A stretch of 64,000 nt of DNA from Escherichia coli (GTDB lineage: Bacteria; Pseudomonadota; Gammaproteobacteria; Enterobacterales; Enterobacteriaceae). Both the position numbers and the translations under genes were made by a program. Under the pieces are notes generated by a model that did no database searches, was not told the origin of the DNA, and saw only the letters and a program-made list of their open reading frames with translations. The stretch is taken from assembly GCF_044647545.1 (NCBI RefSeq), contig NZ_CP172818.1; one strand, given 5' to 3'. Shown here piece after piece: positions 1,508 to 52,900 of the stretch. Every line of letters begins with the position of its first letter. The first letter of the stretch is position 1.

Positions 1508-3049
<1,542 letters not shown>

Positions 3050-3180: not shown

Positions 3181-3193
3181 TTGTTAAAGAGCA
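3181..3193 (-). promoter_or_regulatory. rrn leader boxA antiterminator, downstream of the rrn P1/P2 promoter region (about 3200-3450)
   Basis: Reverse complement reads TGCTCTTTAACAA, the boxA consensus; position is upstream of the 16S 5' end. Confidence 0.7.
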
Positions 3194-3457: not shown

Positions 3458-3490
3458 GACAAAAACGAGCCCCGAAGGGCTCGTTTTATC
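3458..3490 (-). terminator. Rho-independent terminator after clpB
   Basis: GC-rich inverted repeat AAAACGAGCCC-GAA-GGGCTCGTTTT with flanking A/T runs, immediately 3' of the clpB stop. Confidence 0.75.
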
Positions 3491-3492
3491 AT

Positions 3493-35319: not shown

Positions 35320-36932
35320 ACGACCTCTCTCACCTTCTCATCAACTAATTGGGTTAACCGCTCAAGACTCGGGGCTGGATAAATGAATACGTGGATGCAA
35401 AGATTCGCAAACGGCGAATCCTCGATGAGGTCAGCCGCGAATTTTTCGAACAGCACCGCTGTTTCTTTCTCCAGGTCATCCTCGAACCCCGGCGTTTCAG
35501 GCTCGGTTAGTAGATTAGAGTCGTAGCCCACGAACAGAACAAACGTGAAACGATCGAGGTGAGCATCGAAAGGTTGGCTGCCATCAAGAATTTCGTCAAT
35601 GTCGTGGCGAAGCAGGTAGTTATCGTCTTTAATGTCGAGGATTTTTTTGCGCGCGGTATCGATGCAATCCGAAATGTCCTCGTACAACTGATCCCGTATC
35701 TCCGGCAATCTGACGGCAATGTTAATATCAGTCACCAACTCGCTGAAGCCAATCCAAAGCTGATCACCTTCTGGATCGCGGCGAACGATATGCACGTTTT
35801 CAAGAATTTTTTCGGCCCCTGCTTTTTCCACGTATAGCATGCAAGGAATAGGCTGGCTTTCGTGGTGCTGCCGGATCGTTGCGTGCAACAGCACTCGACC
35901 CAAAAATTCGCTGACGTCATGGAGCGATTTGAAGACGGAATTCTTTAGTCGTTCTCGCTTTTCAATGAATGTCAGTTTATGAATATCAGACATTTCTTTT
36001 GGTCGGAGAAAAACCTCATCCAACCATTGACAGACGTTATCCGCGATGTGCTTGTAGCGGTATTTCTTAAGTGAGTACTGCTGATGTAGAACCTGGCCTT
36101 TACGCTTAGCGCAGACCGAAGCCATAGGCGCTCTAAATGGCGTAAGGATGTGGGGTAAGTCCCGTTTGACGTAGATTTTGCGGCCTGACCGAGATTGGTC
36201 ATCTTCGACACGCTGCTTGAACCACTCAAGTAGGTCTGGTCGTAAGTAGGACTTGTCATCAGCACTGTGAATGCGTCGAGAATGCTCGCCCTTGCGCGTC
36301 ACAGTATCAAGGATGCGGCACCAAATGTCTTCGGCGACGGTTTCGGAACTGAGAATGACCCCATGTAGATCTTGGGAGGCCAGCCGTATGTTCTTGATCC
36401 CTAGAAGTTCCAGTTCGCGCAGGGATGAAAACACTTCCCATGTAGCCGCATCGATCCAATCTGAAACGCTTATACCTGAGTCTGTTAAAAAATTGTCTGT
36501 GCGTTTGTTGAGGTCATCGATGAGTTCCTGTCGACCTGGCTTATCTAGTCGGGCGTTTGGGCTGATCGTCAAGTACTCAAGGGTTTTGTTGACCTTTTCC
36601 TCTGTGACGATGGAGTACCTACGTCCAAGGGACAGGTCAGACTCACACTGCATTGATTTGTGCAAAATTGAACTGCAGGGGATCGTCTTTTTATCAGCAC
36701 CTTTTGAATTCTGAACGATGTCCGAAATGTTCCAACGTGTTTTGCCGGTGCTTTTTACCTGAACGAAGTCGATGTATCCATCAGATACAATGTCGATATC
36801 GTCTGTGACCTCGCAGCGCACACTGCGGATAGTCTTGTCACGAAGCATTCGGGTGACATGGTAAGCGGCTACGCAGTCCTGAAATAAGAAACCGTGCTTG
36901 GCGGCTACTCCGCCTGAATCGTTCGACTCCAT
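35316..36932 (-). CDS. yfjL: YfjL, 538 aa, putative nuclease-like N-terminal domain plus large C-terminal domain of unknown function
   Basis: ORF track; N-terminal GFLFQD...EVTDDIDIV...DFVQVKS resembles a PD-(D/E)xK/QxK core; translationally coupled to yfjK. Confidence 0.88.
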   Translation of the reverse strand: MESNDSGGVAAKHGFLFQDCVAAYHVTRMLRDKTIRSVRCEVTDDIDIVSDGYIDFVQVKSTGKTRWNISDIVQNSKGADKKTIPCSSILHKSMQCESDLSLGRRYSIVTEEKVNKTLEYLTISPNARLDKPGRQELIDDLNKRTDNFLTDSGISVSDWIDAATWEVFSSLRELELLGIKNIRLASQDLHGVILSSETVAEDIWCRILDTVTRKGEHSRRIHSADDKSYLRPDLLEWFKQRVEDDQSRSGRKIYVKRDLPHILTPFRAPMASVCAKRKGQVLHQQYSLKKYRYKHIADNVCQWLDEVFLRPKEMSDIHKLTFIEKRERLKNSVFKSLHDVSEFLGRVLLHATIRQHHESQPIPCMLYVEKAGAEKILENVHIVRRDPEGDQLWIGFSELVTDINIAVRLPEIRDQLYEDISDCIDTARKKILDIKDDNYLLRHDIDEILDGSQPFDAHLDRFTFVLFVGYDSNLLTEPETPGFEDDLEKETAVLFEKFAADLIEDSPFANLCIHVFIYPAPSLERLTQLVDEKVREVV

Positions 36933-37190
36933 TTAGACATCCGTGACAATTTTGCGAAAATTAAGGAGATGTTATGACACAGTCCAATCGGATCACTGCA
37001 TCATCACCAGTGATCTAAATACTTCACAGCCATTCTCGGTCGCAGGTATCAAGCTTTTCAGGATTCCACAAATATTGTAACCCTGACGTCTAATTTGGTT
37101 ATATAACATACTGCCCCAACTAACGTAAGGTAGGCACAGCCTTAATCAAGGTTTTGGTTTTCAAATAGTTCAGAGCTGAGACCGCCAACC

Positions 37191-37242
37191 GCACTATGGC
37201 ACTATGGCACTATGGCACTATGGCACTATGGCACTATGGCAC
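37191..37242. repeat. Octanucleotide tandem repeat (GCACTATG) x6.5 flanked by ACCGCCA
   Basis: Read directly: gcactatg repeated six times plus gcac; 7-bp ACCGCCA on both sides; lies between yfjM stop and yfjL start. Confidence 0.95.
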
Positions 37243-37291
37243 CGCCAGCGATTGTAATCACACTTGATATTATAAAACACAGTTGCACGCA

Positions 37292-37555
37292 TTATTTCCT
37301 GGTTGGTAGGGTCATATCTCGATGCTCTTTGAGCAATGTCAACATCGCGTGTTCATGGCTTTCTATATTGTTGATGCCTTGCCCATCCGGACCCCACTCC
37401 TTATAGCTCATCATGATGGCTTGTTTTGGGCTCTCTGCTCGTTCTGTTTCGACGTAGAATTTTTTCTTGTCTGCTGGCGAATAATTACTAAGTATCGAGT
37501 TGCTGCTTGGTGAGATCAGGAAGAGGTTACCGAAACGATGGACATCATCCCCCAT
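37292..37555 (-). CDS. yfjM: Hypothetical protein YfjM, 87 aa
   Basis: ORF track; divergent from rnlA. Confidence 0.7.
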
Positions 37556-37696
37556 TTTGTGGACTGCCCCCCCGGTAGACGATCCTGCCCTATAGTTGGA
37601 GTGCCCCCTATTCAGGTGGCTAAATTTAGCAAATCAATACACTTCAGGGGGGTATTATTGTAGAGTTTCCCCATATGTTTCTATGGGATCCAGGAA

Positions 37697-38770
37697 ATGA
37701 CAATCAGGAGTTACAAAAACTTAAATCTGGTCAGGGCAAATATCGAGACTGAATCCAGACAATTCATTGAAAATAAAAACTATTCAATCCAATCAATTGG
37801 TCCTATGCCAGGGTCAAGGGCTGGGCTTCGGGTCGTATTTACCAGACCAGGGGTTAACTTGGCAACTGTGGACATTTTTTATAACGGGGACGGTTCGACT
37901 ACAATTCAATATCTCACTGGAGCCAATCGTTCTCTGGGCCAAGAGTTAGCGGATCATCTTTTTGAAACCATCAATCCTGCTGAATTTGAGCAGGTAAATA
38001 TGGTACTGCAAGGATTTGTAGAGACAAGCGTTCTACCTGTACTTGAGCTATCAGCAGATGAATCGCATATAGAGTTCAGAGAACACTCTCGTAACGCTCA
38101 TACCGTAGTGTGGAAAATTATTTCCACCAGCTATCAGGACGAATTGACTGTGAGCCTGCATATCACAACAGGTAAGCTCCAGATTCAGGGCCGACCGCTG
38201 TCATGTTACAGAGTTTTCACGTTTAACTTGGCAGCCCTGCTTGATTTACAGGGTTTGGAGAAAGTGCTAATCCGCCAGGAGGATGGTAAAGCTAATATTG
38301 TTCAACAGGAGGTTGCCCGCACTTACTTGCAGACTGTAATGGCCGATGCTTACCCGCATCTCCACGTGACTGCCGAAAAATTGCTCGTTTCAGGGCTATG
38401 TGTTAAACTCGCCGCCCCTGATTTGCCTGACTACTGTATGTTACTTTATCCTGAACTACGCACCATTGAAGGTGTCTTAAAAAGTAAGATGAGTGGGTTA
38501 GGCATGCCAGTACAGCAGCCGGCAGGTTTTGGAACTTACTTTGATAAACCTGCTGCTCATTACATTCTGAAACCGCAATTTGCAGCTACTCTTAGACCGG
38601 AACAGATTAACATCATCAGCACAGCCTATACTTTTTTTAATGTGGAACGTCATTCTCTGTTCCACATGGAAACTGTGGTCGATGCCAGCCGTATGATTTC
38701 TGATATGGCCCGGTTGATGGGTAAAGCCACTAGAGCGTGGGGAATAATCAAGGACTTATATATTGTTTGA
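37697..38770 (+). CDS. rnlA: RnlA toxin (RNase LS endoribonuclease), 357 aa
   Basis: ORF track; translation MTIRSYKNLNLVRANIETESRQFIENKNY... recognised as RnlA. Confidence 0.92.
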   Translation: MTIRSYKNLNLVRANIETESRQFIENKNYSIQSIGPMPGSRAGLRVVFTRPGVNLATVDIFYNGDGSTTIQYLTGANRSLGQELADHLFETINPAEFEQVNMVLQGFVETSVLPVLELSADESHIEFREHSRNAHTVVWKIISTSYQDELTVSLHITTGKLQIQGRPLSCYRVFTFNLAALLDLQGLEKVLIRQEDGKANIVQQEVARTYLQTVMADAYPHLHVTAEKLLVSGLCVKLAAPDLPDYCMLLYPELRTIEGVLKSKMSGLGMPVQQPAGFGTYFDKPAAHYILKPQFAATLRPEQINIISTAYTFFNVERHSLFHMETVVDASRMISDMARLMGKATRAWGIIKDLYIV

Positions 38771-39134
38771 AATCACCGGAATTAACGTCTCAGGGGCTCT
38801 AAAAGCTGTCGTTATGGCGACCGGCTTCGAGAACCCTTTGTCCTCAGTTAATGAAATTGAGACGAAACTTTCTGCCCTACTGGGTAGTGAGACCACTGGT
38901 GAAATCCTTTTTGACCTCTTGTGCGCTAACGGTCCAGAGTGGAACCGCTTCGTTACGCTGGAAATGAAATATGGCCGGATCATGCTGGATACGGCCAAAA
39001 TTATTGATGAGCAGGACGTTCCGACACATATCCTGAGCAAACTGACTTTTACTTTACGTAATCATCCTGAGTACCTAGAAGCCTCTGTTTTGTCTCCCGA
39101 TGATGTACGCCAAGTCCTGTCAATGGATTTTTGA
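38763..39134 (+). CDS. rnlB: RnlB antitoxin, 123 aa
   Basis: ORF track (TTG start overlapping rnlA 3' end by 8 nt); translation (M)FEITGINVSGALKAVVMATGFENPL... Confidence 0.88.
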   Translation: MFEITGINVSGALKAVVMATGFENPLSSVNEIETKLSALLGSETTGEILFDLLCANGPEWNRFVTLEMKYGRIMLDTAKIIDEQDVPTHILSKLTFTLRNHPEYLEASVLSPDDVRQVLSMDF

Positions 39135-39488
39135 AACTCTTCTTTCTAAACGAACCAGTATAGAATTCGCCCTTTTGGCATGATATTAACTTGTCCAATA
39201 TGATCAAATAGCATTAACCCCCCCTCACAACGTCCTGCATAGGGAACACGTTTTCCCCTGTGCACCCACGACTAAATTTCCCCCCCTTTAAACTTCTCAA
39301 TAATGTCACCAATTTTCTGGAAATCCTATGATGCCTTTCCCGGTAAATGGTGCTGTGAGTTCAGAAAGATTCTGCAATCTATGTGCATTGAAAAAATCTT
39401 CAGATAGATATCATTCTCCTGAACAATCCGATGAACGGCAGAACCTCGCGGTTCTGCCGTTTTTGTTTTACTTTTCAGAGGAGTGGTG

Positions 39489-40352
39489 ATGAAAAATTTT
39501 GAAGTTCTGCAGCCACTACAGAACTCCCTTTCCGGTCTACCGCTATGGGTATCTGAACGTATATTGCAGCAGATAAATCAGTTAACCCACTACGAGCCAG
39601 TGATCGGCATCATGGGTAAAACTGGGGCGGGAAAGAGTAGCCTTTGCAATGCCCTGTTTGCCGGTGAAGTATCGCCGGTCAGCGATGTAGCGGCCTGTAC
39701 ACGTGATCCTTTACGCTTTCGCCTGCAGATTGGAGAACACTTTATGACCATCGTGGATCTGCCCGGCGTGGGCGAAAGTGGCGTTCGCGATACCGAGTAT
39801 GCTGCGCTGTACCGCGAACAACTTCCCCGGCTCGACCTGATTCTGTGGCTGATTAAGGCTGATGATCGGGCACTGGCGACTGATGAGCATTTTTACCGTC
39901 AGGTGATTGGCGAAGCATACCGGCATAAGATGCTGTTTGTTATCAGCCAGTCAGACAAAGCTGAACCCACCAGCGGTGGAAATATCCTTTCCACAGAGCA
40001 GAAACAAAATATCAGCCGCAAAATCTGCCTGCTGCATGAGCTATTCCAGCCCGTGCATCCGGTGTGTGCCGTGTCGGTTCGCCTGCAGTGGGGACTAAGG
40101 GTGATGGCAGAGCGGATGATTAAGTGTCTGCCGCGTGAGGCCAGCAGCCCGGTAGTAGCGCTACTGCAACATCCCTTTCGAACAACGGTAGCCCGGGAGC
40201 AGGCACGTGACGATTTCGGTGAAACCGTAGGTGCCATACTCGATACGGTAAGCACCTTTCCCCTTATTCCCGCCCCGGTGCGGACCATTATTCAGGCCGT
40301 GCGTTCCTCGGTGGTGTCAGTGGCCCGCGCTGTCTGGGATTTCTTCTTCTGA
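39489..40352 (+). CDS. yfjP: YfjP, prophage P-loop GTPase (YeeP/YkfA family), 287 aa
   Basis: ORF 39483-40352; ATG at 39489 five nt after GAGGAG; G1 motif GKTGAGKSS, DLPG G3 motif. Confidence 0.88.
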   Translation: MKNFEVLQPLQNSLSGLPLWVSERILQQINQLTHYEPVIGIMGKTGAGKSSLCNALFAGEVSPVSDVAACTRDPLRFRLQIGEHFMTIVDLPGVGESGVRDTEYAALYREQLPRLDLILWLIKADDRALATDEHFYRQVIGEAYRHKMLFVISQSDKAEPTSGGNILSTEQKQNISRKICLLHELFQPVHPVCAVSVRLQWGLRVMAERMIKCLPREASSPVVALLQHPFRTTVAREQARDDFGETVGAILDTVSTFPLIPAPVRTIIQAVRSSVVSVARAVWDFFF

Positions 40353-40380
40353 GTGTTTAATTCTGCCCTATTATTCTCCG

Positions 40381-40412
40381 AGCCCTGTCGCAAGTGCGGC
40401 AGGGCTTTCTTT
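40381..40412 (+). terminator. Rho-independent terminator after yfjP
   Basis: AGCCCTG-TCGCAAGTGCGG-CAGGGCT followed by TTCTTTATTT. Confidence 0.7.
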
Positions 40413-40443
40413 ATTTGTTTTACCCATACTGAGGAGTCTGCTT

Positions 40444-41263
40444 ATGACCCGTCTGGCTTCGCGCTTTGGCGCTGCAAACCAGATACGCCGTGACCGTCCG
40501 CTGACACATGAAGAACTGATACGCCATGTACCCAGTATTTTTGGGGAAGACCGGCACATCCCGCAGTGAACGGTATGCGTACATTCCCACCATTACCGTC
40601 CTGGAAAATCTGCAGCGGGAAGGCTTTCAGCCGTTCTTCGCCTGCCAGACCCGTGTGCGCGACCCGGGCCGCCGGGGATACACAAAACACATGCTGCGTC
40701 TGCGGCGGGCCGGAGAGATAAACGGAGAACATGTCCCTGAAATTATTCTGCTCAACTCTCATGACGGTACCTCCAGCTACCAGATGCTGCCGGGTTACTT
40801 CAGGTTCGTCTGCCAGAACGGGTGCGTCTGTGGCCAGTCTCTGGGGGAAGTGCGTGTTCCACACCGGGGAAATGTAGTGGAGAAAGTTATCGAAGGGGCT
40901 TACGAGGTGGTGGGCGTGTTTGACCGGATAGAGGAGAAGCGTGATGCCATGCAGTCGCTGGTCCTGCCGCCACCGGCACGCCAGGCGCTGGCACAGGCGG
41001 CACTGACTTACCGTTATGGTGACGAACATCAGCCCGTCACCACCGCCGACATTCTGACGCCGCGACGCCGGGAGGATTACGGTAAGGACCTGTGGAGCGC
41101 ATATCAGACCATCCAGGAGAATATGCTGAAAGGCGGGATTTCCGGTCGCAGTGCCAGAGGAAAACGTATCCATACCCGGGCCATTCACAGCATTGATACC
41201 GACATTAAGCTCAATCGCGCATTGTGGGTGATGGCAGAAACACTGCTCACGCAACTGCAGTAG
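40444..41263 (+). pseudogene. yfjQ: yfjQ (DUF932 family), apparently disrupted: 41-codon N-terminal frame ends at 40567, remaining 245 codons are in the +1 frame from 40526
   Basis: ATG 40444 with GAGGAG RBS encodes MTRLASRFGAANQIRRDRPLTHEELIRHVPSIFGEDRHIPQ-stop; the long ORF 40526-41263 is in a different frame; the total span (820 nt) is not a multiple of 3. Confidence 0.6.
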
Positions 41264-41479
41264 ACGTTTCATGTTGCCACGTTGTTAATATCGGACACCA
41301 CCTGTCCGCATCGCTATGTGCTCGTGTGCCTCAATCCCCCGGTTATAGCTTTTAACCCCCGTTACATCTGGCTTTTGCAGAAATAAAAAATAGTTTCTGC
41401 GTTGTCCATACCCTGTCCGCCCCCCTCTTTAAAGTAATCACATCATTTTCAGTCAGTTAACTTTCCTGGAGAATCTCTC

Positions 41480-42181
41480 ATGACACAGGCAGAACGCCGC
41501 CATGACCGGCTGGCTGTCAGGCTGTCACTGATAATCAGCCGTCTGGTTGCGGGTGAAACGTTGAGCGTGCGCAAACTGGCGGCTGAGTTTGGCGTGTCAG
41601 TGCGCACGCTGCGGCGTGATTTTCGTGAACGACTGATGTATCTGGACCTGGAGTATCAGTCCGGATACTGCCGCTTACGCACTGCTGGCAGTGAGATGCA
41701 GATGGTGCCCGACGTGCTTATCTTTGCCCACCGCAGCGGGCTGGCCGGGCTTTTTCCCGGCCTTGACCGCCGTCTGGTGAATGCACTGCTGATGTGCGAT
41801 GAGTCTCCCTGCGTGATAGCACCAGCCAATCCGGTTCCTTCGCCTTCAGGAGCATTGTCTTTCTGGAGACTGATTCAGGCCATTACCGGGCGCAGGCGGG
41901 TGACGCTGATTGCAGAGGGGCGACGCTGTGAGCGCCTAGCTCCCTGCCGGTTACTCATCCACCAGCAGACCTGGTATCTGGTGGCTGAACACGAAGGGCA
42001 TATCGCCGTATTCACACTTGATGAAATCCATCTGATTCAGCCTTTGCAGGAGACTTTTCGCCGCAATGACAGTCTGTGTCGCCTGGTTGAAGACCCGGTC
42101 TTCATTCAGGCCTTACCCCATTTTCGCTTTATCCAGCATTCACTGCTTACGTTTGTTCCGGCCGACAGCCCACCGGAATAG
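41480..42181 (+). CDS. yfjR: YfjR, putative transcriptional regulator with N-terminal HTH (DeoR-like), 233 aa
   Basis: ORF track; translation [48 protein letters not shown]... Confidence 0.85.
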
Positions 42182-42221
42182 CGCAGGCGTTGTTATCAAC
42201 CCGGCAACATGGAGGAGCCCA

Positions 42222-42458
42222 GTGCCCGTTATTGCCATTATCGCCATTGTTATCATCGTCATCATTCTGAACAAAACCGGAGTGTCCGACAGCCTCACGG
42301 CCCTGACACTTGCAACCGTTGCCGCACTACTGACGGGAGGTGGTGCAGCCGGTGCTGCCAGTGTCGCGCTGACGCCGTTCGTCGGCGTGCCGGTGGGTAT
42401 TTTTGTGGGAATTTATGTCTTTGCCAAAGTGGTTCGTCTGATTTCAGGGAAAAAATAA
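42222..42458 (+). CDS. ypjK: YpjK, small hydrophobic membrane protein (about 78 aa)
   Basis: GTG at 42222 six nt after GGAGG; translation VPVIAIIAIVIIVIILNK...; stop overlaps yfjS ATG by 1 nt. Confidence 0.65.
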   Translation: MPVIAIIAIVIIVIILNKTGVSDSLTALTLATVAALLTGGGAAGAASVALTPFVGVPVGIFVGIYVFAKVVRLISGKK

Positions 42459-42901
42459 TGAAACGTAAAACACTACCTCTGCTGGCGCTGGTTGCCACCT
42501 CTCTGTTTCTGAGCGCCTGCGATGACAGGAGTGATGACCTCAAAGCTATCAGTAAATTTAAGGACCTCACGCCCCCGCGCTTCAGCGATGTGGTCAGCCG
42601 TCAGGATGATGTCAGCGAAGAATGGTCACAGGTTGGCTTCTCATCCGGTCTCACCCTGCAGGTCTTACGTACCCGTGAGTCGCCCGATGGTTGCGAGGGT
42701 GGCAGTTACTACTATCTGGTAGATATGGAGGAGAAAACCGTCCAGCCGCTGATGAATGCGCTTTGTATTGCCGACAATATCAAACTGGAATACCACGAAG
42801 TTACGGACCCGTATACGAAAGAAAAATACTTCGAATATTCCCATGACGGCAAACTGATGGGACGGCTGCTGATACCGTCAAACCCTGATAACCGGGAATA
42901 A
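42458..42901 (+). CDS. yfjS: Lipoprotein YfjS, 147 aa
   Basis: In-frame Met within ORF 42209-42901; signal peptide MKRKTLPLLALVATSLFLSAC with lipobox. Confidence 0.8.
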   Translation: MKRKTLPLLALVATSLFLSACDDRSDDLKAISKFKDLTPPRFSDVVSRQDDVSEEWSQVGFSSGLTLQVLRTRESPDGCEGGSYYYLVDMEEKTVQPLMNALCIADNIKLEYHEVTDPYTKEKYFEYSHDGKLMGRLLIPSNPDNRE

Positions 42902-42924
42902 AAACAACGAGAAAGGAGACATAA

Positions 42925-43392
42925 ATGAAAATACGTTCACTAAGCCGGTTTGTACTGGCAAGTACAATGTTCGCCAGCTTTACAGCCTCTGCGGTCCCCG
43001 GACTCTGGCAACAGGGGTACGGTCAGGGCAATGCGGAATACAGTGTGACGGATGCCAGCGGAAAGATGTTTACCATCAACTGCACGGGAAATCCGGACCA
43101 GAACGGTATTTACCAGCACTCGGTTTTTCTGATCCTCGCCGGGGATAAAACGGTCAGCTCGCATGATGACAGTACCGGCATCACAGTGGTGATGGACCAT
43201 AAGCAATATGCCATTCCCTCAACCCTTGGCTGGCGTAACGGAGATAATGCCTGGTTCAGCTTCATCATGGATATCCGTAAGGCCCGGCAGTTCGACGTCT
43301 ACGTCAATGACCAGAAAGTTGGATCGTTTAACCCTGATGTTCGGAATGCACAAAAGGTCCTGCCAACATTAGCGGACTGCACTAACGACTGA
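42925..43392 (+). CDS. yfjT: Secreted protein YfjT, 155 aa
   Basis: ORF track; cleavable signal peptide MKIRSLSRFVLASTMFASFTASA; AGGAGA RBS. Confidence 0.8.
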   Translation: MKIRSLSRFVLASTMFASFTASAVPGLWQQGYGQGNAEYSVTDASGKMFTINCTGNPDQNGIYQHSVFLILAGDKTVSSHDDSTGITVVMDHKQYAIPSTLGWRNGDNAWFSFIMDIRKARQFDVYVNDQKVGSFNPDVRNAQKVLPTLADCTND

Positions 43393-43784
43393 CGGCTGCG
43401 CCTTCCCTACCATAACAACCCTGATTGCCTCCGGCGGTCGGGGGTTTCTTTTTTCTCCTTAATCTCCAGAGGTAGGCCACGTACTTTCGAACGATGAGCG
43501 CAGTGGTCAGTTTTTTTCAGATATATTTATCTTTTTTTGGCTGTAAGCTCCGCTGTGAGCGCAGGCTGTGTGAAAACTCCTGATCACTTCTTGGTCTAAG
43601 CGATGGTTTCATATGATCAACCATTCTTGATAAACCCATGCGACGAACTGACTTTTTCATTAAAATTAGAAATATACGAATGAATACTGCGGATACCGAC
43701 ATGGCCAATCACATTCAAGGACAAGGCAGGCACCAGGTGACATTACTCCCTGATGCACTGGATGATTTTGTCACTGAAGATAAC

Positions 43785-43931
43785 TTAAGTAAGTTTAATC
43801 AGTTCATCACGGGTCGGTGGCATATCGAGATAATTAATTATTGTCGGTTCGTTGCCGTTGTTATGAAGCATCTCCAGCGTGTTGCGTGAGGTGCCACAGG
43901 CCGGGTTGTGATAGATGGTAATGTTGCTCAT
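43785..43931 (-). pseudogene. yfjU: Arsenate reductase ArsC N-terminal fragment (48 codons)
   Basis: Minus-strand translation MSNITIYHNPACGTSRNTLEMLHNNGNEPTIINYLDMPPTRDELIKLT-stop, the ArsC N-terminus with the catalytic Cys, truncated. Confidence 0.8.
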
Positions 43932-43943
43932 ATCAGTATCTAA

Positions 43944-44935
43944 TTACAAAGTGACAGAGAGCCGCCACGCCAGCGCGGCCAGAGTGACAAACAGCACCGG
44001 CACAGTCATGACAATGCCGGTACGGAAGTAATATCCCCAAGTGATTGTCATATTTTTCTGGGCAAGCACATGCAGCCACAGCAGAGTTGCCAGACTGCCA
44101 ATCGGGGTGATTTTCGGGCCTAAATCACAGCCAATCACATTGGCATAAATCATTGCCTCTTTGACGACGCCAGTCGCCGTACTCCCGTCAATCGACAGCG
44201 CACCAATCAGCACCGTCGGCATATTGTTCATCACTGATGAGAGAAATGCCGTCAAGAAGCCGGTGCCGAACGTCGCTGCCCATAACCCCTTGTCTGCCAG
44301 CAGATTCAGCACGCCAGACAGGTACTCCGTGAACCCTGCATTGCGCAGGCCATAGACCACGATGTACATGCCCAGTGAGAAAATAACGATCTGCCATGGC
44401 GCACCGCGCAGGACTTTTCCGGTGTTGATCGAATGACCTCTTTTCGCCACCACAAACAGCACTGCTGCGCCAGCGGCCGCTATCGCACTGACCAGGATTC
44501 CCTGCGGCTCCAGAAAGAAGAAACCGACAAGCAGCAATAACAGGACAATCCAGCCCGCCCTGAAGGTTGCCAGATCCTTGATCGCACTGGCAGGCGTCTT
44601 CAGCAGCGAAACTTAATACGTTGCCGGAATAACTCTGCGAAAGAAGAGATACAGCATAATCAGCGTGGCCGCAATCGCTGCCGCATCCACGGAGATCATA
44701 ACGGAGGCGTACTGCGCAAAGCTCAGACCGAAGAAGTCCGCCGAGACGATATTCACCAGGTTAGAAACAATGAGCGGCAGGCTGGCCGTATCTGCAATAA
44801 ATCCTGCAGCCATGACAAAGGCCAGTGTCGTGCCCTGGCTGAACCCAGTGCGATCAGCATCGCAATCACAATCGGCGTCAGGATCAGCGCGGCGCCGTCA
44901 TTGGCAAACAACGCATCAACAGCGGCACCGAGCAA
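43944..44935 (-). pseudogene. yfjV: Arsenite efflux pump ArsB remnant, frameshifted and 5'-truncated
   Basis: ORF 43944-44537 encodes an ArsB-like C-terminal membrane region; ORFs 44613-44813 and 44753-44935 in other frames carry ArsB-like N-terminal segments. Confidence 0.75.
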
Positions 44936-45094
44936 GACTTTCCAGGTGAACAGCGCTCTAGGTAGGAACTTTGTCGTTGATAGAGTCTTCAGCCATCAAC
45001 ACTGTATCGAGTAATGAAATTGGTTGCTAGAAAGTCGATGATTTGTTGCGTATGATTAAAAATCAACCTTAAAGGCTTTATACATGGATTTGCT

Positions 45095-46798
45095 ATGGCT
45101 TTTGTATCAGAAAGAGAAATTGTAAGAAAGATATTTAGCAAAAAAATTGACTTTACGATCTTGGCATTTTTCTATATTTCCTCTATTTTTTTTCTTCTTT
45201 GTAGTGGCGTTCTCTTTCAATATTTTACCGCTGCCTTCACAAAAGGTAATTGTTATGAATGCTCAATGAAACTTGATTACATAAAACAATTTTATTTTTC
45301 ACTGGAAACCGCATGGTACCTCATATCTGCTGTTGCAGTATTTATTGCATCTGTTTTTATACAGCATAGAATTAAAGCTTATTTAACATTATTAGCTATT
45401 ACATGGATTGTACTAACAATAACAGATGTGGCGTTAATACACGCCTTAGACAATATAGCCATGAATAATATTTTGTTAAATATACTATATAATCTTTTTG
45501 GGGCGATTTTATTGTCACTGTTTATGTGTTTATCAAATTCCCTCCTTTTCCACCTTAATAAGATAAAACATATTCCAATGATTTTATCGGCAATGATTCC
45601 ATTAGTTTCCGCAATAATAATAGCCATACTCATAACCGCTGTTATATATTTATTGTTTGCCCGGCAGGCGGTAGAGATTGAGATGGATATATCTGAAGGT
45701 TCAGACATCGCATATGTAGGTGTAAAAGATAATGAGGAATCATTTGGGTTTTTAAATGATAAAAAAACAGACACACCAACGTATCTGGATGTAATCAAAA
45801 ATGGTAGTTTGATATATAATGATACACAGGGTTTAAGTGGTGCTGATATTTATATTGTCTCCGGTTGTTATGCCCTTCCAGATTTACTTCGCAATGTACC
45901 GCTTGATGCTAAAAAATCTTTTCTGAATGTAAAAAAGCTAGAAATCACACAGAAACTTCCAATGATGGGGTTCATACAAGGTGAATCCGCTGATGTGATG
46001 CCTAAAGCAGCATCCAGGTTAAGTTTGAGCAAGCAAGATGATAAATTTATGCTAGCCTCAAGTGTTACTGACTCTCAAATAAAATTTAAATCAAACAATG
46101 CACAATTGATGGTTGCTTTCGCATTTATGCCAATAACAACGAATGGTATTTTACATGATTATACATACGATATAATAATAAATGATAAAAAATATAAAAT
46201 TGAAAATCATGTTGCACCTCTATCTAGGCTTGATAAAAATAAGAAGATGAAGTGTGAATACCAGCAAATATCGGATTTAACAAATACGTATAACATTAAT
46301 GCAAATTACTTAACGGGTTTTTTACTTGTCCTAAAACCAGATGATATTATTAATTACAACAATAGCCCTTCCGTACTACTCAAGACTGATTTTGCGTTCT
46401 ATAAAAAAACATACCAGAAGCTTGATAAAATATATGATGACATAAGCAATGGAAAATTATCTTCACTGAGAGCAACAGGTATCTCCCAGTTTAGTATCAA
46501 CGGGAAACATTTGTCGTTAAGGCCAGAATCGGAGATTATTATTTCTGAAGGGAGTTTGTATGGACTAGTTAATAAAAGCAAAAAAATCAAAATATATGGC
46601 ACAGCAGATCTTGTTTTTGTTGATAACAAGATAATGAACCTTCGTAAAATAACTTATTTGCAATCTAAGCTAGAAATTTTTGGTTCTTCTATTATGGATA
46701 TATTAAAGTATATATTTGGTTTAGGTCTGCTAGCAATTTCTATAAAATTCATTCATTCTTACTTTAAGAATGATGTGAATGAAAATTTATTCTTGTAA
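45095..46798 (+). CDS. yfjW: YfjW, 567 aa, N-terminal polytopic membrane domain plus large C-terminal domain of unknown function; strongly AT-rich
   Basis: ORF track; about five hydrophobic helices in the first ~190 residues; A/T-rich codon usage unlike the core genome. Confidence 0.85.
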   Translation: MAFVSEREIVRKIFSKKIDFTILAFFYISSIFFLLCSGVLFQYFTAAFTKGNCYECSMKLDYIKQFYFSLETAWYLISAVAVFIASVFIQHRIKAYLTLLAITWIVLTITDVALIHALDNIAMNNILLNILYNLFGAILLSLFMCLSNSLLFHLNKIKHIPMILSAMIPLVSAIIIAILITAVIYLLFARQAVEIEMDISEGSDIAYVGVKDNEESFGFLNDKKTDTPTYLDVIKNGSLIYNDTQGLSGADIYIVSGCYALPDLLRNVPLDAKKSFLNVKKLEITQKLPMMGFIQGESADVMPKAASRLSLSKQDDKFMLASSVTDSQIKFKSNNAQLMVAFAFMPITTNGILHDYTYDIIINDKKYKIENHVAPLSRLDKNKKMKCEYQQISDLTNTYNINANYLTGFLLVLKPDDIINYNNSPSVLLKTDFAFYKKTYQKLDKIYDDISNGKLSSLRATGISQFSINGKHLSLRPESEIIISEGSLYGLVNKSKKIKIYGTADLVFVDNKIMNLRKITYLQSKLEIFGSSIMDILKYIFGLGLLAISIKFIHSYFKNDVNENLFL

Positions 46799-46805
46799 CG
46801 CATTT

Positions 46806-46826
46806 GGCTCCAATTGGAGCCTTTTT
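46806..46826 (+). terminator. Rho-independent terminator after yfjW
   Basis: GGCTCCAATTGGAGCC hairpin followed by TTTTT. Confidence 0.8.
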
Positions 46827-47227
46827 ATGACTATTTATTAAAATATCCTAAGTTAAGCCTGTTTTTAAAGCAGGCTTGAGCGTGAAGCGGACACTCATAC
46901 CTGCTTTAAAGTGGCGTTTTTGTCGTTACCCATACCTATATTTTCTGTTGTTTAACTGCCAGAACTGAGCGGTTGAAAAGCCAGAAATATGCCGAGCCAG
47001 CGGCATGGAAGCGCCAGCAGCTGTTGAATGGAGTACTGTAGGCAAATGGTGCCGTAACCGGCTTTCGTACTGAAAGGTTCTGTCTATCCCATCCCTTCTC
47101 TTGTATCTAACATTTAGTTGTGAATAGCTACTGTAAATGCCCCTACAAAATGAACCATTATTTTTAGAGGGCGTCTGGCACTCCAACTTCCGCTTTTGGC
47201 ACAGAACGGCCTATCAGCAATATAAAA

Positions 47228-47345
47228 GCATTCAGATATATATCATTTCTACAAACATACCCGATTAACGGCAGAATCTCAGGATTCTGCCGCTTTTTTA
47301 TTATTTTTCAGGGGAGTAGTAATGAGCAACTCTGAAGGTTGGTAG
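47228..47345 (+). other. Remnant of a second yfjP-like GTPase gene: conserved 5' leader with hairpin plus a truncated 7-codon ORF
   Basis: 47228-47321 is about 80 percent identical to the yfjP leader 39405-39488, including the CGGCAGAA...TTCTGCCG hairpin and the RBS; ATG 47322 encodes MSNSEGW-stop. Confidence 0.7.
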
Positions 47346-47695
47346 TCATTTTAGCAAACGCTTTCTGGTCTGCCGCAGTGGGCATCGGCTGATTGCGTAG
47401 CAGGGCCACTGGTATCTGCCGGTATCACCGACATTAACATTGAAGACGACCAGGGCATTCACGTCCGCCTGATAGTTCGTGATGCCGAAGGTCGGATGGT
47501 TGGCGGGCATGGAACTTTGAACCGGACGCCGGTGAAGGTTTTAACCGCTATATCCACAGGTCAGGCATCCGCACCGACACCTTCCCCCGCTGACTCCGAA
47601 TCATTTACCAGCAACATTTCACCTTCCCAAACGCGCTTTATTACCTCATACGCCAGCCATCGCCGCTGGCGTTTTTTATTCACGGAGACATACCC

Positions 47696-48154
47696 ATGAC
47701 AACACAGACACAGTACGACCTCGTACCCGCTAACGGATCCGAATTTGAGTTGAGCGTAACGCAGGTACCCGATGAACAGCATATCCGCTTCTGGCCGCAG
47801 CACTTTGGCACCATCCCGCAGTGGATAACGCTGGAACCGCGCATTTTCGCCTGGATGGACCGCTTCTGTGATGAGTACTGCGGGGGTATCTGGTCCTTTT
47901 ACACGCTCAGCAATGGCGGAGCGTTTATGGCTCCTGATGCTGACGGTGACGATAAATGGCATTTGCTCAACGGCATGAATGGCAATGGTGCGGAAATGAG
48001 CGCGGAAGCCGCAGGTATCGCTGTCTGCCTGATTGAATATAGCCATCACGCCTGCCTCACCGAATGCGATGCCATGACGGAGCACTATTACCGCCTGCGG
48101 GATTACGCTCTGCAGCACCCTGAATCCAGCGCCATTATGCGCATTATTGATTAA
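47696..48154 (+). CDS. yfjX: YfjX, antirestriction protein (ArdB/KlcA family), 152 aa
   Basis: ORF track; translation MTTQTQYDLVPANGSEFELSVTQVPDEQHIRFWPQHFGTIPQWITLEPRIFAWMDRFCDEY... Confidence 0.88.
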   Translation: MTTQTQYDLVPANGSEFELSVTQVPDEQHIRFWPQHFGTIPQWITLEPRIFAWMDRFCDEYCGGIWSFYTLSNGGAFMAPDADGDDKWHLLNGMNGNGAEMSAEAAGIAVCLIEYSHHACLTECDAMTEHYYRLRDYALQHPESSAIMRIID

Positions 48155-48162
48155 GGATACTC

Positions 48163-48645
48163 ATGATGGAACAGTCACTCATCCCACAGACACCGGTACT
48201 TCCACTGACCGCACAACGCACGGTAAAACGCGCCTTAACGCTGCTTGACCGACACCTGCGCGAAACAGGCGTGGCATTCACCTCCACTCAGGCTGCTCGT
48301 GACTGGCTGAAGCTGAAAATGGCGGGGCTGGAGCGTGAAGAATTTATGATGCTGTATCTGAACCAGCAGAACCAGTTGATTGCCCACGAAACCCTGTTTG
48401 CCGGTTCTATTAGCAGTACCGAGGTACATCCCCGTGAGGTGGTCAAACGCGCCCTGTATTTCAATGCAGCAGCAGTGATACTGGCGCATAACCACCCCTC
48501 CGGCGACACTACTCCCAGCCAGGCAGATAAGACTATAACGCAGCGTCTGGTGCAGGCGCTTCAGCTCGTTGATATCCGTGTCCCTGACCATCTGATTGTT
48601 GGTGGCAGGCAAATCTATTCGTTCGCAGAACACGGTCTGCTTTGA
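48163..48645 (+). CDS. yfjY: YfjY, RadC-like JAB/MPN domain protein, 160 aa
   Basis: ORF track; JAMM-like motif HNHPSGDTTPSQAD. Confidence 0.88.
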   Translation: MMEQSLIPQTPVLPLTAQRTVKRALTLLDRHLRETGVAFTSTQAARDWLKLKMAGLEREEFMMLYLNQQNQLIAHETLFAGSISSTEVHPREVVKRALYFNAAAVILAHNHPSGDTTPSQADKTITQRLVQALQLVDIRVPDHLIVGGRQIYSFAEHGLL

Positions 48646-48653
48646 GGTATTAC

Positions 48654-48854
48654 ATGAGAATTATCAGTAAACGCCGGGCAATGACGATATACCGCCAGCA
48701 TCCTGAGTCCCGAATCTTTCGCTACTGCACCGGAAAATATCAGTGGCACGGTAGCGTCTGTCATTACACCGGCAGGGATGTTCCGGATATCACAGGAGTC
48801 CTGGCTGTGTACGCCGAACGCCGCAGGACCGCAGCGGACCGTATGCTTGACTGA
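48654..48854 (+). CDS. ypjJ: YpjJ, DUF987 protein (YeeT paralog), 66 aa
   Basis: ORF 48642-48854; ATG at 48654; translation MRIISKRRAMTIYRQHPESRIFRYCTGKYQWHG... Confidence 0.75.
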   Translation: MRIISKRRAMTIYRQHPESRIFRYCTGKYQWHGSVCHYTGRDVPDITGVLAVYAERRRTAADRMLD

Positions 48855-48891
48855 TGAGTATCACCCTGAACTGACAATAAAGAGGTTATGA

Positions 48892-49209
48892 ATGAGCAAC
48901 ACCACATGGGGCCTGCAGCGAGATATCACGCCGCGCCTGGGAGCACGTCTGGTGCAGGAGGGCAACCAGCTGCACTATCTGGCTGACCGGGCCAGTATCA
49001 CCGGTAAGTTTAGTGACGCCGAATGTCCTAAGCTGGATGTGGTATTTCCACATTTTATCAGCCAGATAGAGTCGATGCTGACCACTGGTGAACTGAATCC
49101 CCGCCATGCCCAATGCGTCACCCTGTACCACAACGGTTTTACCTGCGAAGCCGATACTCTTGGTAGTTGCGGCTACGTATACATCGCTGTTTACCCCACT
49201 CAACGCTAA
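48892..49209 (+). CDS. yfjZ: YfjZ, CbeA-family type IV antitoxin, 105 aa
   Basis: ORF track; translation [58 protein letters not shown]... Confidence 0.88.
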
Positions 49210-49229
49210 CTAATTTCACGAGAGCAAGC

Positions 49230-49559
49230 ATGAACACTCTACCTGCTACAATTTCGCAGGCGGCGAAGCCCTGCCTGTCGCCAGTGGCTGTCTGGCAAAT
49301 GCTACTGACACGCCTGCTGGAACAACACTATGGCCTGACACTGAACGACACGCCGTTCAGTGATGAAACTGTTATTAAGGAACATATCGATGCTGGTATC
49401 ACTCTGGCCGATGCAGTCAATTTTCTGGTGGAAAAGTACGAACTGGTACGTATCGATCACAGAGGATTTTCGTGGCAACAACAGTCTCCATATATTTCCG
49501 TAGTAGATATTCTGCGAGCAAGGCGCTCTACCGGCTTGCTAAAAACTAATGTGAAATAA
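49230..49559 (+). CDS. ypjF: YpjF, CbtA-family type IV toxin (cytoskeleton-targeting), 109 aa
   Basis: In-frame ATG 49230 within ORF 49167-49559; translation [57 protein letters not shown]... Confidence 0.85.
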
Positions 49560-49740
49560 ACGCTTAAATACAGAGCAGACTGAAGGAAAGCAAAATGCTA
49601 ATCTCATAGACGAAGAGACTCCCGCTGTAACCTCCCCTCCCCCGAAAAAACCTGACATTTTCTTTTAGGACCAACAATGGGACCAAAATGAAAATTGAAC
49701 TGAAGATTACAATCAATTTAACAACAAGTTACACAACCAA

Positions 49741-49764
49741 TTCAACTCCCGCCAGCTCCACCAA
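49741..49764. repeat. attR: 24-bp direct repeat identical to the ssrA 3' end
   Basis: TTCAACTCCCGCCAGCTCCACCAA, exact match to 27712-27735. Confidence 0.9.
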
Positions 49765-49923
49765 TCATGATTGGACGGTGTAAGGACAACACCAATAAAA
49801 ACAGGAAGTTAGCAGTCTCAGCAGGACACCGACCAGACGGTGAGGAGACAAAAAAGGATACGCAAAGGAGCCGCGGCCCCTGGTGATATGAAAGCCCACA
49901 GATGTGGGCTTTTTCGTTGATGG

Positions 49924-52900
49924 TCAGAACGACCAGTTCACACCAGCCACTGCGTTCCACGGGGATTCCACACCGGCACCATGGCTATACCCCACCCCGA
50001 GATGCCCGCTTAACGAACTGCTGAATGAGGCTTTAATACCTGCCTGGTATATTCCACGTCTGCCCGACAAATCATTGACAAAATTACCGTCATTATTCAC
50101 TTTCACCCGGTTATCATCGACAAATTCTTTGCGCACAGCCGCCTTCAGCCACGGCTCAACTTCCATGCCGTTCCCCAGACGCATGTTGTAACTCAGCGTT
50201 GCGCCCAGTTCACGATATATACTGCGGGTATCGACTGATTTCGATTCCATGCCATTGGATAAATGATATTCGGGGTTATCAGCGGTGAACCCCGTTAACG
50301 ATGCATACGGCGTCAGGTTCCAGTTACCATCGGTAAATCGCATCCCGGTTTCAATGTGACCACCCAGCCCGTTGCTGCGATAACTGCCGTTGGCGGCTCC
50401 ACCGCTGCTCATTTTACCGGCTACGTTACTTTCAAAGCGGTTCAGCTTCACGATACCGTCCAGATAGAAACCACTTTCATGTTCCCAGCTGGCATAGCCC
50501 CCCAGAGAATAACTGCCCACACTGCCATGTCCTCCACGATCAAAACCGATATGTGAATGGGAATAACCCATAAAAGCGCCCAGCGTCGCAATCCCCTCAG
50601 GAATATCATTACGGCTATCGATCCCCACCGTCATTCCGGTCAGCGTCTGCTCAAACCCGGCACCCGCATCGGTGGTGACATTATTACGGGTGTTATACGT
50701 CGTCCCCCAGACATTATTGTTGTGTGGACTCGCTTTCATTATGTTCAACCGCTCGCGAATACTGTTTAGCTCAGCATCAAAGACCAACGGTAATGTTGCT
50801 GCCATATTGAGTACGGCTGCCGTAGAAGGCGTGATGCGTTTCTCCGGGACGGGTGTCGGCGTTGGATCGGGAGTCGGGTCTGGTTTCGGATCCGGTTTTG
50901 GGTCTGGTTTTGGATCCGGCTTCGGATTTGGGTTGGGGTCCGGGTTGGGTTTGACATCATTGGTCAGGTTCCAGTTGCTGTTGCCGTCGCTTTTCAGGAC
51001 ATACTCATAGGTCCCAAGATCAACGAAACCGCCGGTATTACCCAGCGTAAACGAAGCATCCCCTCCCCCTGTTTTCACCAGCGTCATCGCGTCGTCAGAC
51101 TGAGGGCTGACGCCGGTATCCTGAACAAAGATTTTAAAATTACCAGTGGCGTTGTTGTTGACGACCAGTTGATCGCCCCGGGAGCCTGCAACGTTGGTAT
51201 GCAGGTAGAAATTACCGCTGCCGGAAAGTTCACTGGTTGTCAGCGTATTGTAGATACCGTTAGTTGTGGCAGGCGCTGCTGTTTGTGCTGATAAATAAAC
51301 ATCACCGTCGTTGAGGAGCAAACTGTTTACTCTATATTCGCAGTTGCTGGTACCTGCACAGGAATTATTGCTGTTAAGCCAGACACTGCCCCGGCTGGCA
51401 GCCGTCAGGTCGGTAAGCGTCGTATCGACGCCATTTCCGATAGTTAATGTCGCGCTATCGGTAATCCGGATCGCCCCTTCGAGTTTAACTGGCGTAACAT
51501 TATCCCGTGGCGTCATTAACGACAGGCTTCCTGTCGCGCCACTGACCGATGCATCCGCCAGCGTACCTGCATAGACGATTGCCGTCCCGCCAGCGACCTG
51601 GAGATCTTCTGCCCGGGCCAGAGCCTGAAACTCATCTTTTGACCGCCCAAGGGTATATTGCCCGCCAGAGTTAACCTTTGTGGCGGAGTCCTGACCCAGG
51701 TTTTGCATTGCACCACCCTTGCCAACCTTGGAGTCACGGGCTTCGGTACCTGCTAATACCAATAAATTACCGCCATTTTCCAGCAACATATTGGTCGCTA
51801 AATTGCCGGCAATGGAAAAGGTACCGTACTGGTGAGTACCGCTGATTTCAATACCGTTAGCCGTGCTCGTATGGAGAGCGGCACCGCTGTTCTGGATGAT
51901 ATCTGTCGCTTTGCCATTATCGTTGACTGTCAGCGTACCGCCTTCATTAATCGTTGTTTTTACTGCCTCACCGTTAGCCGAAACTGTTTGTATTCCGCCG
52001 TCGTTAATCGTTGTCTCATTCGCCACCCCCTCGACGATTTGTTCGCCGCCGGTGAGCGTCGTGCCTGTCGCAGTGGCTTTTGTTTTGACGATCTCCCGCC
52101 CGCCCGCATTGACCTGTGTTTTGGCGGAAGTGGTGTCTGACTCCACGGTTAACACGCCGCCATTTGCCAGCAGGATATTGTTCGCCGCACCCTGCTCGAT
52201 GCTGAACGCGACGCCATCAGCGCGTGTCCCTGTGACCCGCGTCGCTCTGGTGGTTGCAACCAACGCGCCCTGGCTACTTTGCTGTATCCCCGTTGCGCTG
52301 CCTTTCTCCCGCACATCGAGAGTGCCGCCGTCATTAAGCACCGAGTTTTCAGCCAGACCGCCCTCATTAACTACCTGTGAACCGCCATTAATAATGGAAC
52401 CTTCCGCTGTCCCGTTTACCATAATTTGTTGTAGGCCAGAGACGATATCGGTATTGATCGCCTTACCATAATTCTGAACGGTTTGCGTGCCGCCTTTGAT
52501 GTGCGTTTTATCTGTTGACCCACCATCAACAATTTGTTCACCACTTTCGATATTTGCCTCAGTGGCTAAACCATATACCGTTTGCTTGCCACCTTTGATA
52601 TTTGCTTTTTCAGAAGTGGCACTGGCATATATTGTTTGGGTACCCGCACTATTAAGTACAGTACCAACATCTTTTCCATAAACATCCATTTTGCCGTTGG
52701 CATTAATAATCGTGTCAACTGCCCGGGAACCAGTGACGACTGTTAATGAGCCAGCGTTTTCCAGCACTACATTTTTAGCTTCTGAATTCCTGATGTAGAA
52801 AGCATCACCATAACTGTTGGTTCCTTCGATAAGTGTTCCGGAGGTCGTGGAAGCAATTAATGCGCCGCCGGATTGTTGCTCAACATGCTTAGCCTCACCA

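Follow-up and report, generated by a model that had tools for sequence, protein, structure and literature searches.

The gene yfjW lies in the CP4-57 region of Escherichia coli K-12, and was analyzed here within a window of 64,000 nucleotides from contig NZ_CP172818.1 (assembly GCF_044647545.1). Positions refer to this window, except for those given with a locus handle (L005 and the like), which refer to loci carrying homologs of yfjW or their recombinases. Taken as a whole, yfjW was best explained as a silent, mobile accessory effector directed at the envelope or its lipids, a reading to which we gave a probability of about 0.4. The anatomy, the mobility and the silencing of the gene, considered jointly, were established with high confidence, and a protective role of the protein directed at the envelope or at lipids is proposed tentatively, with the odds somewhat against it. 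According to this explanation, yfjW would encode a polytopic inner-membrane protein with six helices and a periplasmic all-beta domain between helices 5 and 6, and the gene, which brings along its promoter region and terminator, would be complete in itself and move as a one-gene cassette. Once de-repressed, the protein would act at the envelope, where a lipid, or an envelope component linked to one, is probably bound or handled by the membrane bundle together with the periplasmic beta domain. The carrying element or the host may thereby gain a protective accessory trait, in the form of exclusion, defence or envelope-stress resistance. The gene is already annotated and its silencing is published, and it is still counted in the K-12 'y-ome' (PMC11551758).

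An intact and selected gene of low GC content

The open reading frame (ORF) of 567 codons starts with ATG and was 100% identical to the annotated gene 'yfjW: protein YfjW' of E. coli K-12, and the region from 44900 to 47000 matched K-12 genomes at 100% identity. The GC content was 0.30-0.35 across 45000-47000 and 0.31 in yfjW itself, compared with 0.53-0.58 on either side. At the composition of yfjW a stop codon is expected every ~13 codons, and the chance of 567 stop-free codons was ~5e-21. The ratio of nonsynonymous to synonymous substitution rates (dN/dS), determined pairwise by the Nei-Gojobori method for six homolog pairs, was 0.16 between K-12 and Serratia and 0.12-0.15 for the remaining pairs. 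The low chance probability and the dN/dS of 0.12-0.16 together indicated that yfjW is a real gene under purifying selection. All full-length homologs were intact, while some homologs were truncated or frameshifted (L017-type fragments, L020 and L021).

The ORF, its strong A/T-richness and the decayed ars genes upstream had been described in the first-pass annotation, and all three were found as described. The same annotation had placed a decayed GTPase gene beside yfjW, which was a misassignment: the downstream pseudogene is the DUF905 gene ypjI, and the GTPase gene yfjP is intact and located ~5 kb upstream.

A candidate promoter upstream of yfjW (9 of 12 consensus matches) did not score above shuffle expectation; it is located within the 120 bp that travel together with the gene. 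The terminator hairpin that follows the stop codon was also kept in L005, L018 and L021. Two variants of the region were observed, namely an IS2 inserted within 44900-47000 in NCM3722, and a yfjW of DH5alpha that was 9 bp shorter (1695 vs 1704 bp) and 99.5% identical.

Protein anatomy and predicted topology

The structure of YfjW was modelled with AlphaFold2 on a 16-sequence alignment. Five N-terminal hydrophobic helices, about the number noted before, were found by both the model and hydropathy at residues 17-46, 72-87, 92-118, 124-157 and 162-188. A sixth hydrophobic helix was detected by hydropathy at the C-terminus (residues 534-556); it corresponded to a helix of residues 534-564 in the model and was kept in full-length homologs. 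The model showed a beta-rich region at residues 193-515, and the domain of residues 190-530, when modelled alone, reached a predicted local distance difference test score (pLDDT) of 87.4 and a predicted template modelling score (pTM) of 0.85, with ~22 strands, several of which were 15-19 residues long. Owing to helix 534-556, this domain of ~340 residues would be anchored in the membrane at either end, through helices 5 and 6. The C-terminal domain had initially been taken as soluble and ~380 residues long; a large domain is indeed present, and it is somewhat shorter, tethered rather than free, and predicted to be periplasmic.

Four of the first 16 residues are lysine or arginine, and the loops between helices 2 and 3 and between helices 4 and 5 are basic, in line with the positive-inside rule. 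Based on this rule and on the conserved cysteines, both termini of YfjW were predicted to be cytoplasmic, and the loop of residues 47-71 and the domain of residues 190-530 were predicted to be periplasmic. The CxxC motif formed by C53 and C56 was nearly invariant in the family alignment and was kept down to 25% identity, being found in the distant members P0019, P0021 and P0023 and absent from P0032, and the pair C258/C387 was retained by every family member. Both cysteine pairs are located in predicted outside segments, consistent with the predicted topology. Within the membrane bundle, the polar residues Q42, R92, D111, N129 and N133 were conserved even in relatives of 21-25% identity, which suggests that the bundle does more than anchor the protein. 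Conserved motifs spanned the whole length of YfjW down to the same 21-25% identity.

A small family outside characterised folds

The YfjW protein is outside every characterised family and solved fold. No family was retrieved from the defence hidden Markov models of PADLOC-DB v2 at E up to 1, no match was obtained from PHROGs, and nothing significant was found in NCBIfam and Pfam. Two weak scores, to SduA_N (E 0.07) and to a peptidoglycan-hydrolase model (E 0.043; 13.9 bits against a cut-off of 183 bits), were treated as chance. Some homologs are named DUF1761 at NCBI. The corresponding model PF08570 gave E = 3.1 for K-12 YfjW, and among 14 members one reached E 3.2e-4 and five E up to 0.1, over helices 2-4 only, which may reflect hydrophobic bias. 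The family profile matched no sequence in the PDB, CcsBA included, and no fold match was found among solved structures. When AFDB50 was searched with Foldseek, full-length matches to uncharacterised proteins of ~600 residues were obtained (E ~1e-30, template modelling score 0.5-0.6, ~16% identity) in Xenorhabdus, Vibrio, Rhizobium, Pandoraea and E. coli, a few of them labelled 'ResB-like domain-containing'. Sequence methods did not reach these relatives, and the broader family was visible by structure only; repeat protein searches with the family profile and with the Pseudomonas relative P0032 did not extend it.

The family is very small and under strong purifying selection. Homologs of YfjW made up 17 clusters in a database of 5.8 billion clusters and 16 representatives among 1.84 billion, and the family profile retrieved 26 clusters, many of which were short fragments. 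The protein was present in 2 of 100,044 species representatives (Serratia sp. AKBS12, 97%; Raoultella ornithinolytica, 53%), and yfjW-like genes in 2 of 72,556 plasmids. Among complete E. coli genomes, 362 of 5426 carried yfjW, all at least 99% identical, and among the matches listed the carriers were laboratory derivatives of K-12 such as MG1655, W3110, MC4100, J53 and DH5alpha. Judging from these matches, yfjW is limited to the K-12 lineage within E. coli.

Mobility of yfjW as a one-gene cassette

Every homolog was a solitary gene in a mobile or variable region, that is, on plasmids, integrative and conjugative elements (ICEs) or integrase-bearing islands. Plasmid-borne homologs came from IncFII plasmids of Salmonella and Enterobacter kobei, from plasmids of Pantoea and E. 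kobei and, in Mangrovibacter (L005), from a contig that resembles a plasmid. One homolog belonged to a conjugative element that also has MobA, TraD and H-NS-like genes, and another to an ICE of Serratia sp. AKBS12 with a MobH/PFGI-1-class relaxase nearby. The Klebsiella and Raoultella homologs adjoin an integrase, and their common 2.7-kb block takes in the 3' end of int. In L014, a metagenomic element at tmRNA/ssrA, the same attachment site as that of CP4-57, the homolog directly follows a P4-type integrase (251-3684); the start of this yfjW-like gene (25% identity) overlaps the stop of int (NF007246, 562 bits), which suggests that the two are co-transcribed. The most distant relative, Pseudomonas P0032, adjoins a cluster of DsbC-like, thioredoxin/Lgt-fusion and DsbD genes (L016 11799-15159).

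Enterobacterial copies of the gene all had a GC content of 0.30-0.32, and the Pseudomonas copy had 0.41, with flanks of 0.37-0.63. That 0.30-0.32 was held despite protein identities of 44-60% means either that the gene moves too frequently to ameliorate or that its AT-richness is selected.

Two alignments delimited the imported DNA. The Mangrovibacter locus was 89.3% identical to K-12 over 1873 bp (44974-46844), including 120 bp upstream of the gene, with no homology beyond. On the Serratia sp. AKBS12 ICE, a larger block (L018 8685-12117) was 96.5% identical over 3433 bp; arsC is intact there, and arsB is split as in K-12. The match suggests that this block of 3.4 kb passed recently between Serratia and the K-12 lineage, or reached both from a common donor. 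The separate acquisition that had been supposed from base composition is supported by both matches and by the restriction to K-12.

A tyrosine recombinase of ~328 residues adjoins the yfjW-type gene in six independent contexts. A XerC-type recombinase was found beside the homologs of L005, L008-10, L011-12 and L021, with a remnant in L013, and five of the six neighbouring recombinases were mutually 70-89% identical, the frameshifted L013 remnant counted; the neighbour in L020 was a different tyrosine recombinase, 25% identical. The neighbouring recombinases scored best on XerC/XerD models, below the cut-off. No recombinase remnant was detected by tblastn at 43000-48000 of the K-12 window. An integron cassette was rejected: the recombinases scored 69-77 bits against the 265-bit cut-off of TIGR02249 and so are not IntI, and the 3' end of yfjW consists of the terminator hairpin and one dif-like arm, with no attC.

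Upstream of the recombinase gene, 85-120 bp from its start, a dif-like site TCTACTTATTAAAA-N6-TTTGAAAAAGTAGA was identified, with inverted arms of 14 bp and a centre of 6 bp. The full site occurred once per locus in all 12 recombinase loci examined, and the yfjW-type gene was on its far side, in either orientation; in about half of its independent contexts the gene stood next to this site. The homology of K-12 to the full L005 site stopped at the border between arm and central region, at 46844, and the half-site left in K-12 was the only match of at least 12/14 in 40000-50000. The Serratia copy also retains the single arm ACTATTTATTAAAA. We read the K-12 arm as a recombination scar, judging from this break in homology. 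The boundary of the yfjW module thus carries a putative recombination site, present as one arm in K-12 and as a full site in the recombinase loci. Two recombinases of 89% identity adjoin yfjW alleles that are 48% and 87% identical to that of K-12, which indicates that the neighbouring gene was exchanged. An invertible promoter (phase variation) was considered and rejected, since each locus has only a single full site and no inverted repeats were found around the DNA between the recombinase gene and yfjW.

The same recombinase family was found on 1886 plasmids. One yfjW-linked recombinase was 92.7% identical to the XerC-type recombinase directly upstream of mcr-10.1 on pEL-ars1. In the description of mcr-10 the recombination sites could not be identified, and accessory or resistance genes beside a XerC-type recombinase were proposed to move by site-specific recombination (PMC7067168). 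Cargo of ars, mer and mcr-10 adjoins the same recombinase family, and ars operons stand beside the recombinase on other plasmids. Two further observations were made on these platforms. In L026, the mcr-10 plasmid pEL-ars1, whose recombinase upstream of mcr-10.1 is among the 12 with a full site, an isolated second arm ACTATTTATTAAAA, the variant of the K-12 scar, is located at 2525-2538 on the minus strand, 1.8 kb from the full site; arm and site bracket a hypothetical gene of 383 residues, and only the arm is common with K-12. Sibling IncF plasmids (L022 456-4319; L027 1734-3620) hold other large cargo in the recombinase-adjacent slot of the yfjW-type gene, namely a DUF4365 protein of 1287 residues (weak PDC-M02A) and an AAA ATPase with a match (E 1.6e-21) to PDC-M26A, a defence candidate.

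Silencing by H-NS and StpA

Published work has shown that yfjW, which lies in a chromosomal hairpin, is silent in an hns mutant and rises ~50-fold in an hns stpA mutant (PMC12460168), as would be anticipated from the earlier suggestion of H-NS silencing. StpA alone maintains the repressive structure at yfjW (bioRxiv 10.64898/2026.02.10.705075), and the silencing is also covered by a further report (bioRxiv 10.64898/2026.02.23.707533). The H-NS occupancy of yfjW is the highest reported for any chromosomal gene.

Possible functions of YfjW

In the SLiPP machine-learning screen, YfjW was placed within the ten highest-ranking lipid binders predicted for E. coli, and its AlphaFold model was called a 'unique beta-taco fold' (PMC10862712). 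The present results neither contradict the word 'unique' nor support membership in the Lpt/AsmA group. The lipid prediction, and the defence and toxin genes near yfjW and its homologs, count in favour of an accessory effector at the envelope. Several points weigh against this explanation. The gene is silent in K-12, and the literature assigns no phenotype to it; neither homology searches nor fold comparison linked it to any protein of lipid handling, defence or exclusion; and the proposed lipid binding comes from one machine-learning prediction. The family is far rarer than typical defence genes, and no relative was found in 50,697 phage genomes (by tblastn) or among the 2.9 million viral contigs of IMG/VR. 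With ars, mer and mcr-10 among the recombinase-adjacent cargo, the neighbourhood is not specific to defence, and the PDC matches are candidates rather than validated systems. Finally, only one full dif-like site per locus was found, and cassette exchange at this site is a putative mechanism.

An abortive-infection or superinfection-exclusion effector, which would block phage DNA entry from the periplasm or depolarise the membrane when triggered, is one version of the envelope-protective reading, and in our estimate a doubtful one. The membrane location and the periplasm-facing domain fit such a role, and so does the occurrence of the gene on its own as cargo of mobile elements. AbpA, RnlAB and a GmrSD-domain gene are found 6-9 kb away from yfjW in the K-12 island, an AbiJ-like PDC-S32 gene (a candidate, not a validated system) adjoins the homolog in L011, and ABC-3C and RES toxin genes are near the homolog in L021. 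The homologs of Klebsiella, Raoultella and the ssrA island L014 are integrase-adjacent, and such loci are antiviral hotspots in some elements (PMC9122126). The P4-like psu-int hotspot of that report did not apply: L014 has no psu among its called genes and is not the defined P4 hotspot, and K-12 yfjW, ~17 kb from intA, is at no such locus. Eight other homolog neighbours tested against defence models gave no match. The homologs share their mobile elements with toxin-antitoxin genes and a few defence candidates, and ars, mer and mcr-10 cargo occupies the same region. The prophage-cargo effector proposed in the first-pass annotation was not upheld by PADLOC, PHROGs, Pfam or NCBIfam, and the extreme rarity of the family and its absence from the phage and viral collections also speak against it. 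In the portion of a published E. coli phage-resistance screen that was accessible, yfjW was not among the hits and had low scores only, which is weak evidence because the gene is silent.

A periplasmic beta domain between membrane helices recalls LptF/LptG, and YfjW might be a beta-jellyroll ('beta-taco') lipid-transport protein of the Lpt/AsmA type, with a groove that moves lipopolysaccharide or phospholipid across the periplasm. The top-tier lipid-binding prediction and 'beta-taco' description (PMC10862712) agree with this, and the strands of 15-19 residues in the model fit a large curved sheet. We nevertheless consider it very unlikely: hhalign against Serratia LptF and LptG (in locus L004) gave a probability of 0.1%, no fold similarity to the solved beta-jellyroll domains of Lpt, TamB and AsmA was found, and a gene for an ABC or outer-membrane partner was never adjacent in the homolog loci.

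It is highly improbable that yfjW is a functionless relic which H-NS keeps harmless in K-12, or that it assists the recombinase module instead of being cargo with a cellular function. Such a view draws on the silence of the gene in K-12, on its decayed neighbours, on the damage in some homologs and on the tight linkage to the recombinase site. Against this stand the low dN/dS, the intact full-length homologs and the motifs conserved along the whole protein. The recombinase family occurs on 1886 plasmids and yfjW-like genes on 2, so the recombinase does not need YfjW.

Least probable of all is a thiol-redox or ResB/CcsB-like membrane protein whose cysteines shuttle electrons or handle a cofactor (DsbB, DsbD or ResB pathways): the periplasmic CxxC right after helix 1, the conserved C258 and C387, the 'ResB-like' labels of some AFDB structural relatives and the Dsb-type neighbours of P0032 favour it, but none of the 14 family members tested matched Pfam ResB (PF05140) with the E limit raised to 10, CcsBA had no sequence match, P0032 itself lacks the CxxC, and C258/C387 may form a structural disulfide only.

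A wider version of the preferred explanation, the silent and mobile envelope effector, would make YfjW-type proteins the first members of a new class of mobile-element envelope effectors, with an unseen periplasmic beta fold on a six-helix base; we regard this as quite unlikely. It would follow that ~30% GC is selected so that H-NS and StpA hold the gene off until the silencing is broken, for instance by anti-H-NS factors of phages or plasmids, and that the dif-like site of a widespread plasmid XerC-type recombinase, on the platform of mcr-10, serves to swap yfjW in and out as one cassette.

Features and neighbourhood of yfjW on the K-12 island

The features identified in the window and in the homolog loci are listed in Table 1. 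The conserved island backbone of other E. coli resumes at ypjI, and the segment 46850-47440 is also K-12-specific within E. coli. Further upstream, at 36000-40400, abpA, the GmrSD-domain gene yfjM, the toxin-antitoxin pair rnlAB and the intact yfjP make up a defence-rich part of CP4-57. An Rfam scan of 43500-48000 found no RNA element. In the intergenic region of yfjW and ypjI, a strong terminator-like hairpin of 10 pairs followed by CTTTTTTA is located at 47269-47292 on the plus strand, with no Rfam match; a non-coding RNA candidate of 91 nt between yfjW and yfjX has been reported from tiling arrays (PMC6505713). Four copies of the 9-mer TTTGTCGTT are present in the window (44970-44978, 46510-46518, 46919-46927 and 11696-11704), where 0.7 would be expected. 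Two of them flank the AT-rich block as a direct repeat, but a target duplication is improbable, given the further copy within yfjW.

Table 1. Positions of yfjW, its predicted protein segments, its putative cassette boundaries and neighbouring features
Feature	Position	Strand	Basis
yfjW coding sequence, 567 aa, stop included	45095..46798	+	ORF list; identity to annotated K-12 yfjW
Weak sigma-70-like promoter match TAGAAA-17-TATGAT (candidate)	45028..45056	+	consensus scan, 9/12 matches
Intrinsic terminator: hairpin GGCTCCAATTGGAGCC (46806-46821), then T-run, 8 bp past yfjW stop	46806..46829	+	terminator scan
Predicted bundle of five N-terminal membrane helices, residues 17-188	45143..45658	+	AlphaFold2, hydropathy, loop charges, alignments
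Conserved CxxC, C53-Y-E-C56, predicted first periplasmic loop	45251..45262	+	family alignment; loop pLDDT low
Predicted all-beta periplasmic domain, residues 190-530, with conserved C258 and C387	45662..46684	+	
Predicted sixth, C-terminal membrane helix, residues 534-556, then short cytoplasmic tail	46694..46762	+	hydropathy, AlphaFold2
Minimal common yfjW cassette: promoter region, gene, terminator, half-site	44974..46844	+	blastn, Mangrovibacter L005
Half dif-like site ACTATTTATTAAAA, 12/14 matches to arm TCTACTTATTAAAA	46830..46843	+	homology break, arm comparison
Full dif-like sites	L026 4340-4373 (pEL-ars1), L005 11738-11771, L008 9756-9789		upstream of recombinase gene
Full dif-like sites	L011 9754-9787, L013 9859-9892, L021 9527-9560, L022-L028 ~4320-4415		upstream of recombinase gene
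Larger imported block arsC'-arsB'-yfjW plus ~400 bp	43780..47211	.	blastn 96.5% over 3433 bp, Serratia sp. AKBS12 ICE
arsC'	43779-43931	-	RefSeq annotation
arsB pseudogene (yfjV), N-terminus missing at yfjW cassette junction	43944..44959	-	RefSeq annotation, ORF fragments
ypjI, frameshifted DUF905 pseudogene	47433..47593	+	RefSeq annotation

Significance and comparison with known systems

K-12 is the best-annotated bacterium, and yet an intact, selectively maintained protein of 567 residues matches no family or solved fold in it. An activity of YfjW, if found, would add a new fold and function to the envelope repertoire and help to explain why a strongly silenced foreign gene is kept; if expression gives no phenotype, yfjW would be an ordinary silent orphan on a decaying island. 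The dif-like site is a candidate recombination site for a platform that also carries the colistin-resistance gene mcr-10.

P22 SieA, T4 Imm, lambda RexB and TraS are small accessory inner-membrane proteins on mobile elements that act alone at the envelope. Compared with these, YfjW matched no common sequence family, is much larger, has a big periplasmic domain and was not found in phage genomes. LptF/LptG/LptC, YhdP and TamB share with YfjW an inner-membrane anchor and a beta-rich periplasmic domain, and for YfjW too a lipid-binding pocket has been predicted (PMC10862712); unlike them, YfjW has no profile similarity to LptF/LptG and no partner genes nearby, and its domain is tethered at both ends. 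ResB/CcsB proteins have a similar layout, in which several N-terminal helices precede a large extracytoplasmic domain and a single helix closes the C-terminus, but YfjW has no Pfam, PDB sequence or fold match to them and no ccsA neighbour.

With respect to regulation, yfjW resembles H-NS/StpA-silenced foreign genes such as ygeH and the waa operon, which are likewise AT-rich, bound by H-NS and freed only when the repressive structure is dismantled. It differs from them in having the highest reported occupancy and in requiring the loss of both H-NS and StpA. This class describes regulation only and says nothing on the function of yfjW.

With respect to mobility, the yfjW loci resemble XerC-type modules, such as those of mcr-10 and the IMEX-type modules with blaNMC-A/blaIMI, in having an accessory gene beside a XerC-type recombinase. 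Unlike these modules, K-12 yfjW has no recombinase and one arm only, and its excision as a flanked module is putative. MCR-10 itself belongs to the MCR/EptA proteins, whose periplasmic domain has an alpha/beta sulfatase fold, in contrast to the all-beta domain and sixth helix predicted for YfjW, and hhalign against MCR-10.1 gave a probability of 0.1%. The mcr-10 gene is downstream of the recombinase gene, whereas yfjW is on the other side, beyond the site. Despite these differences, MCR/EptA proteins share with YfjW a length of ~540-570 residues, five N-terminal membrane helices and a periplasmic domain of ~340 residues, and mcr-10 adjoins the same XerC-type recombinase family as the yfjW homologs.

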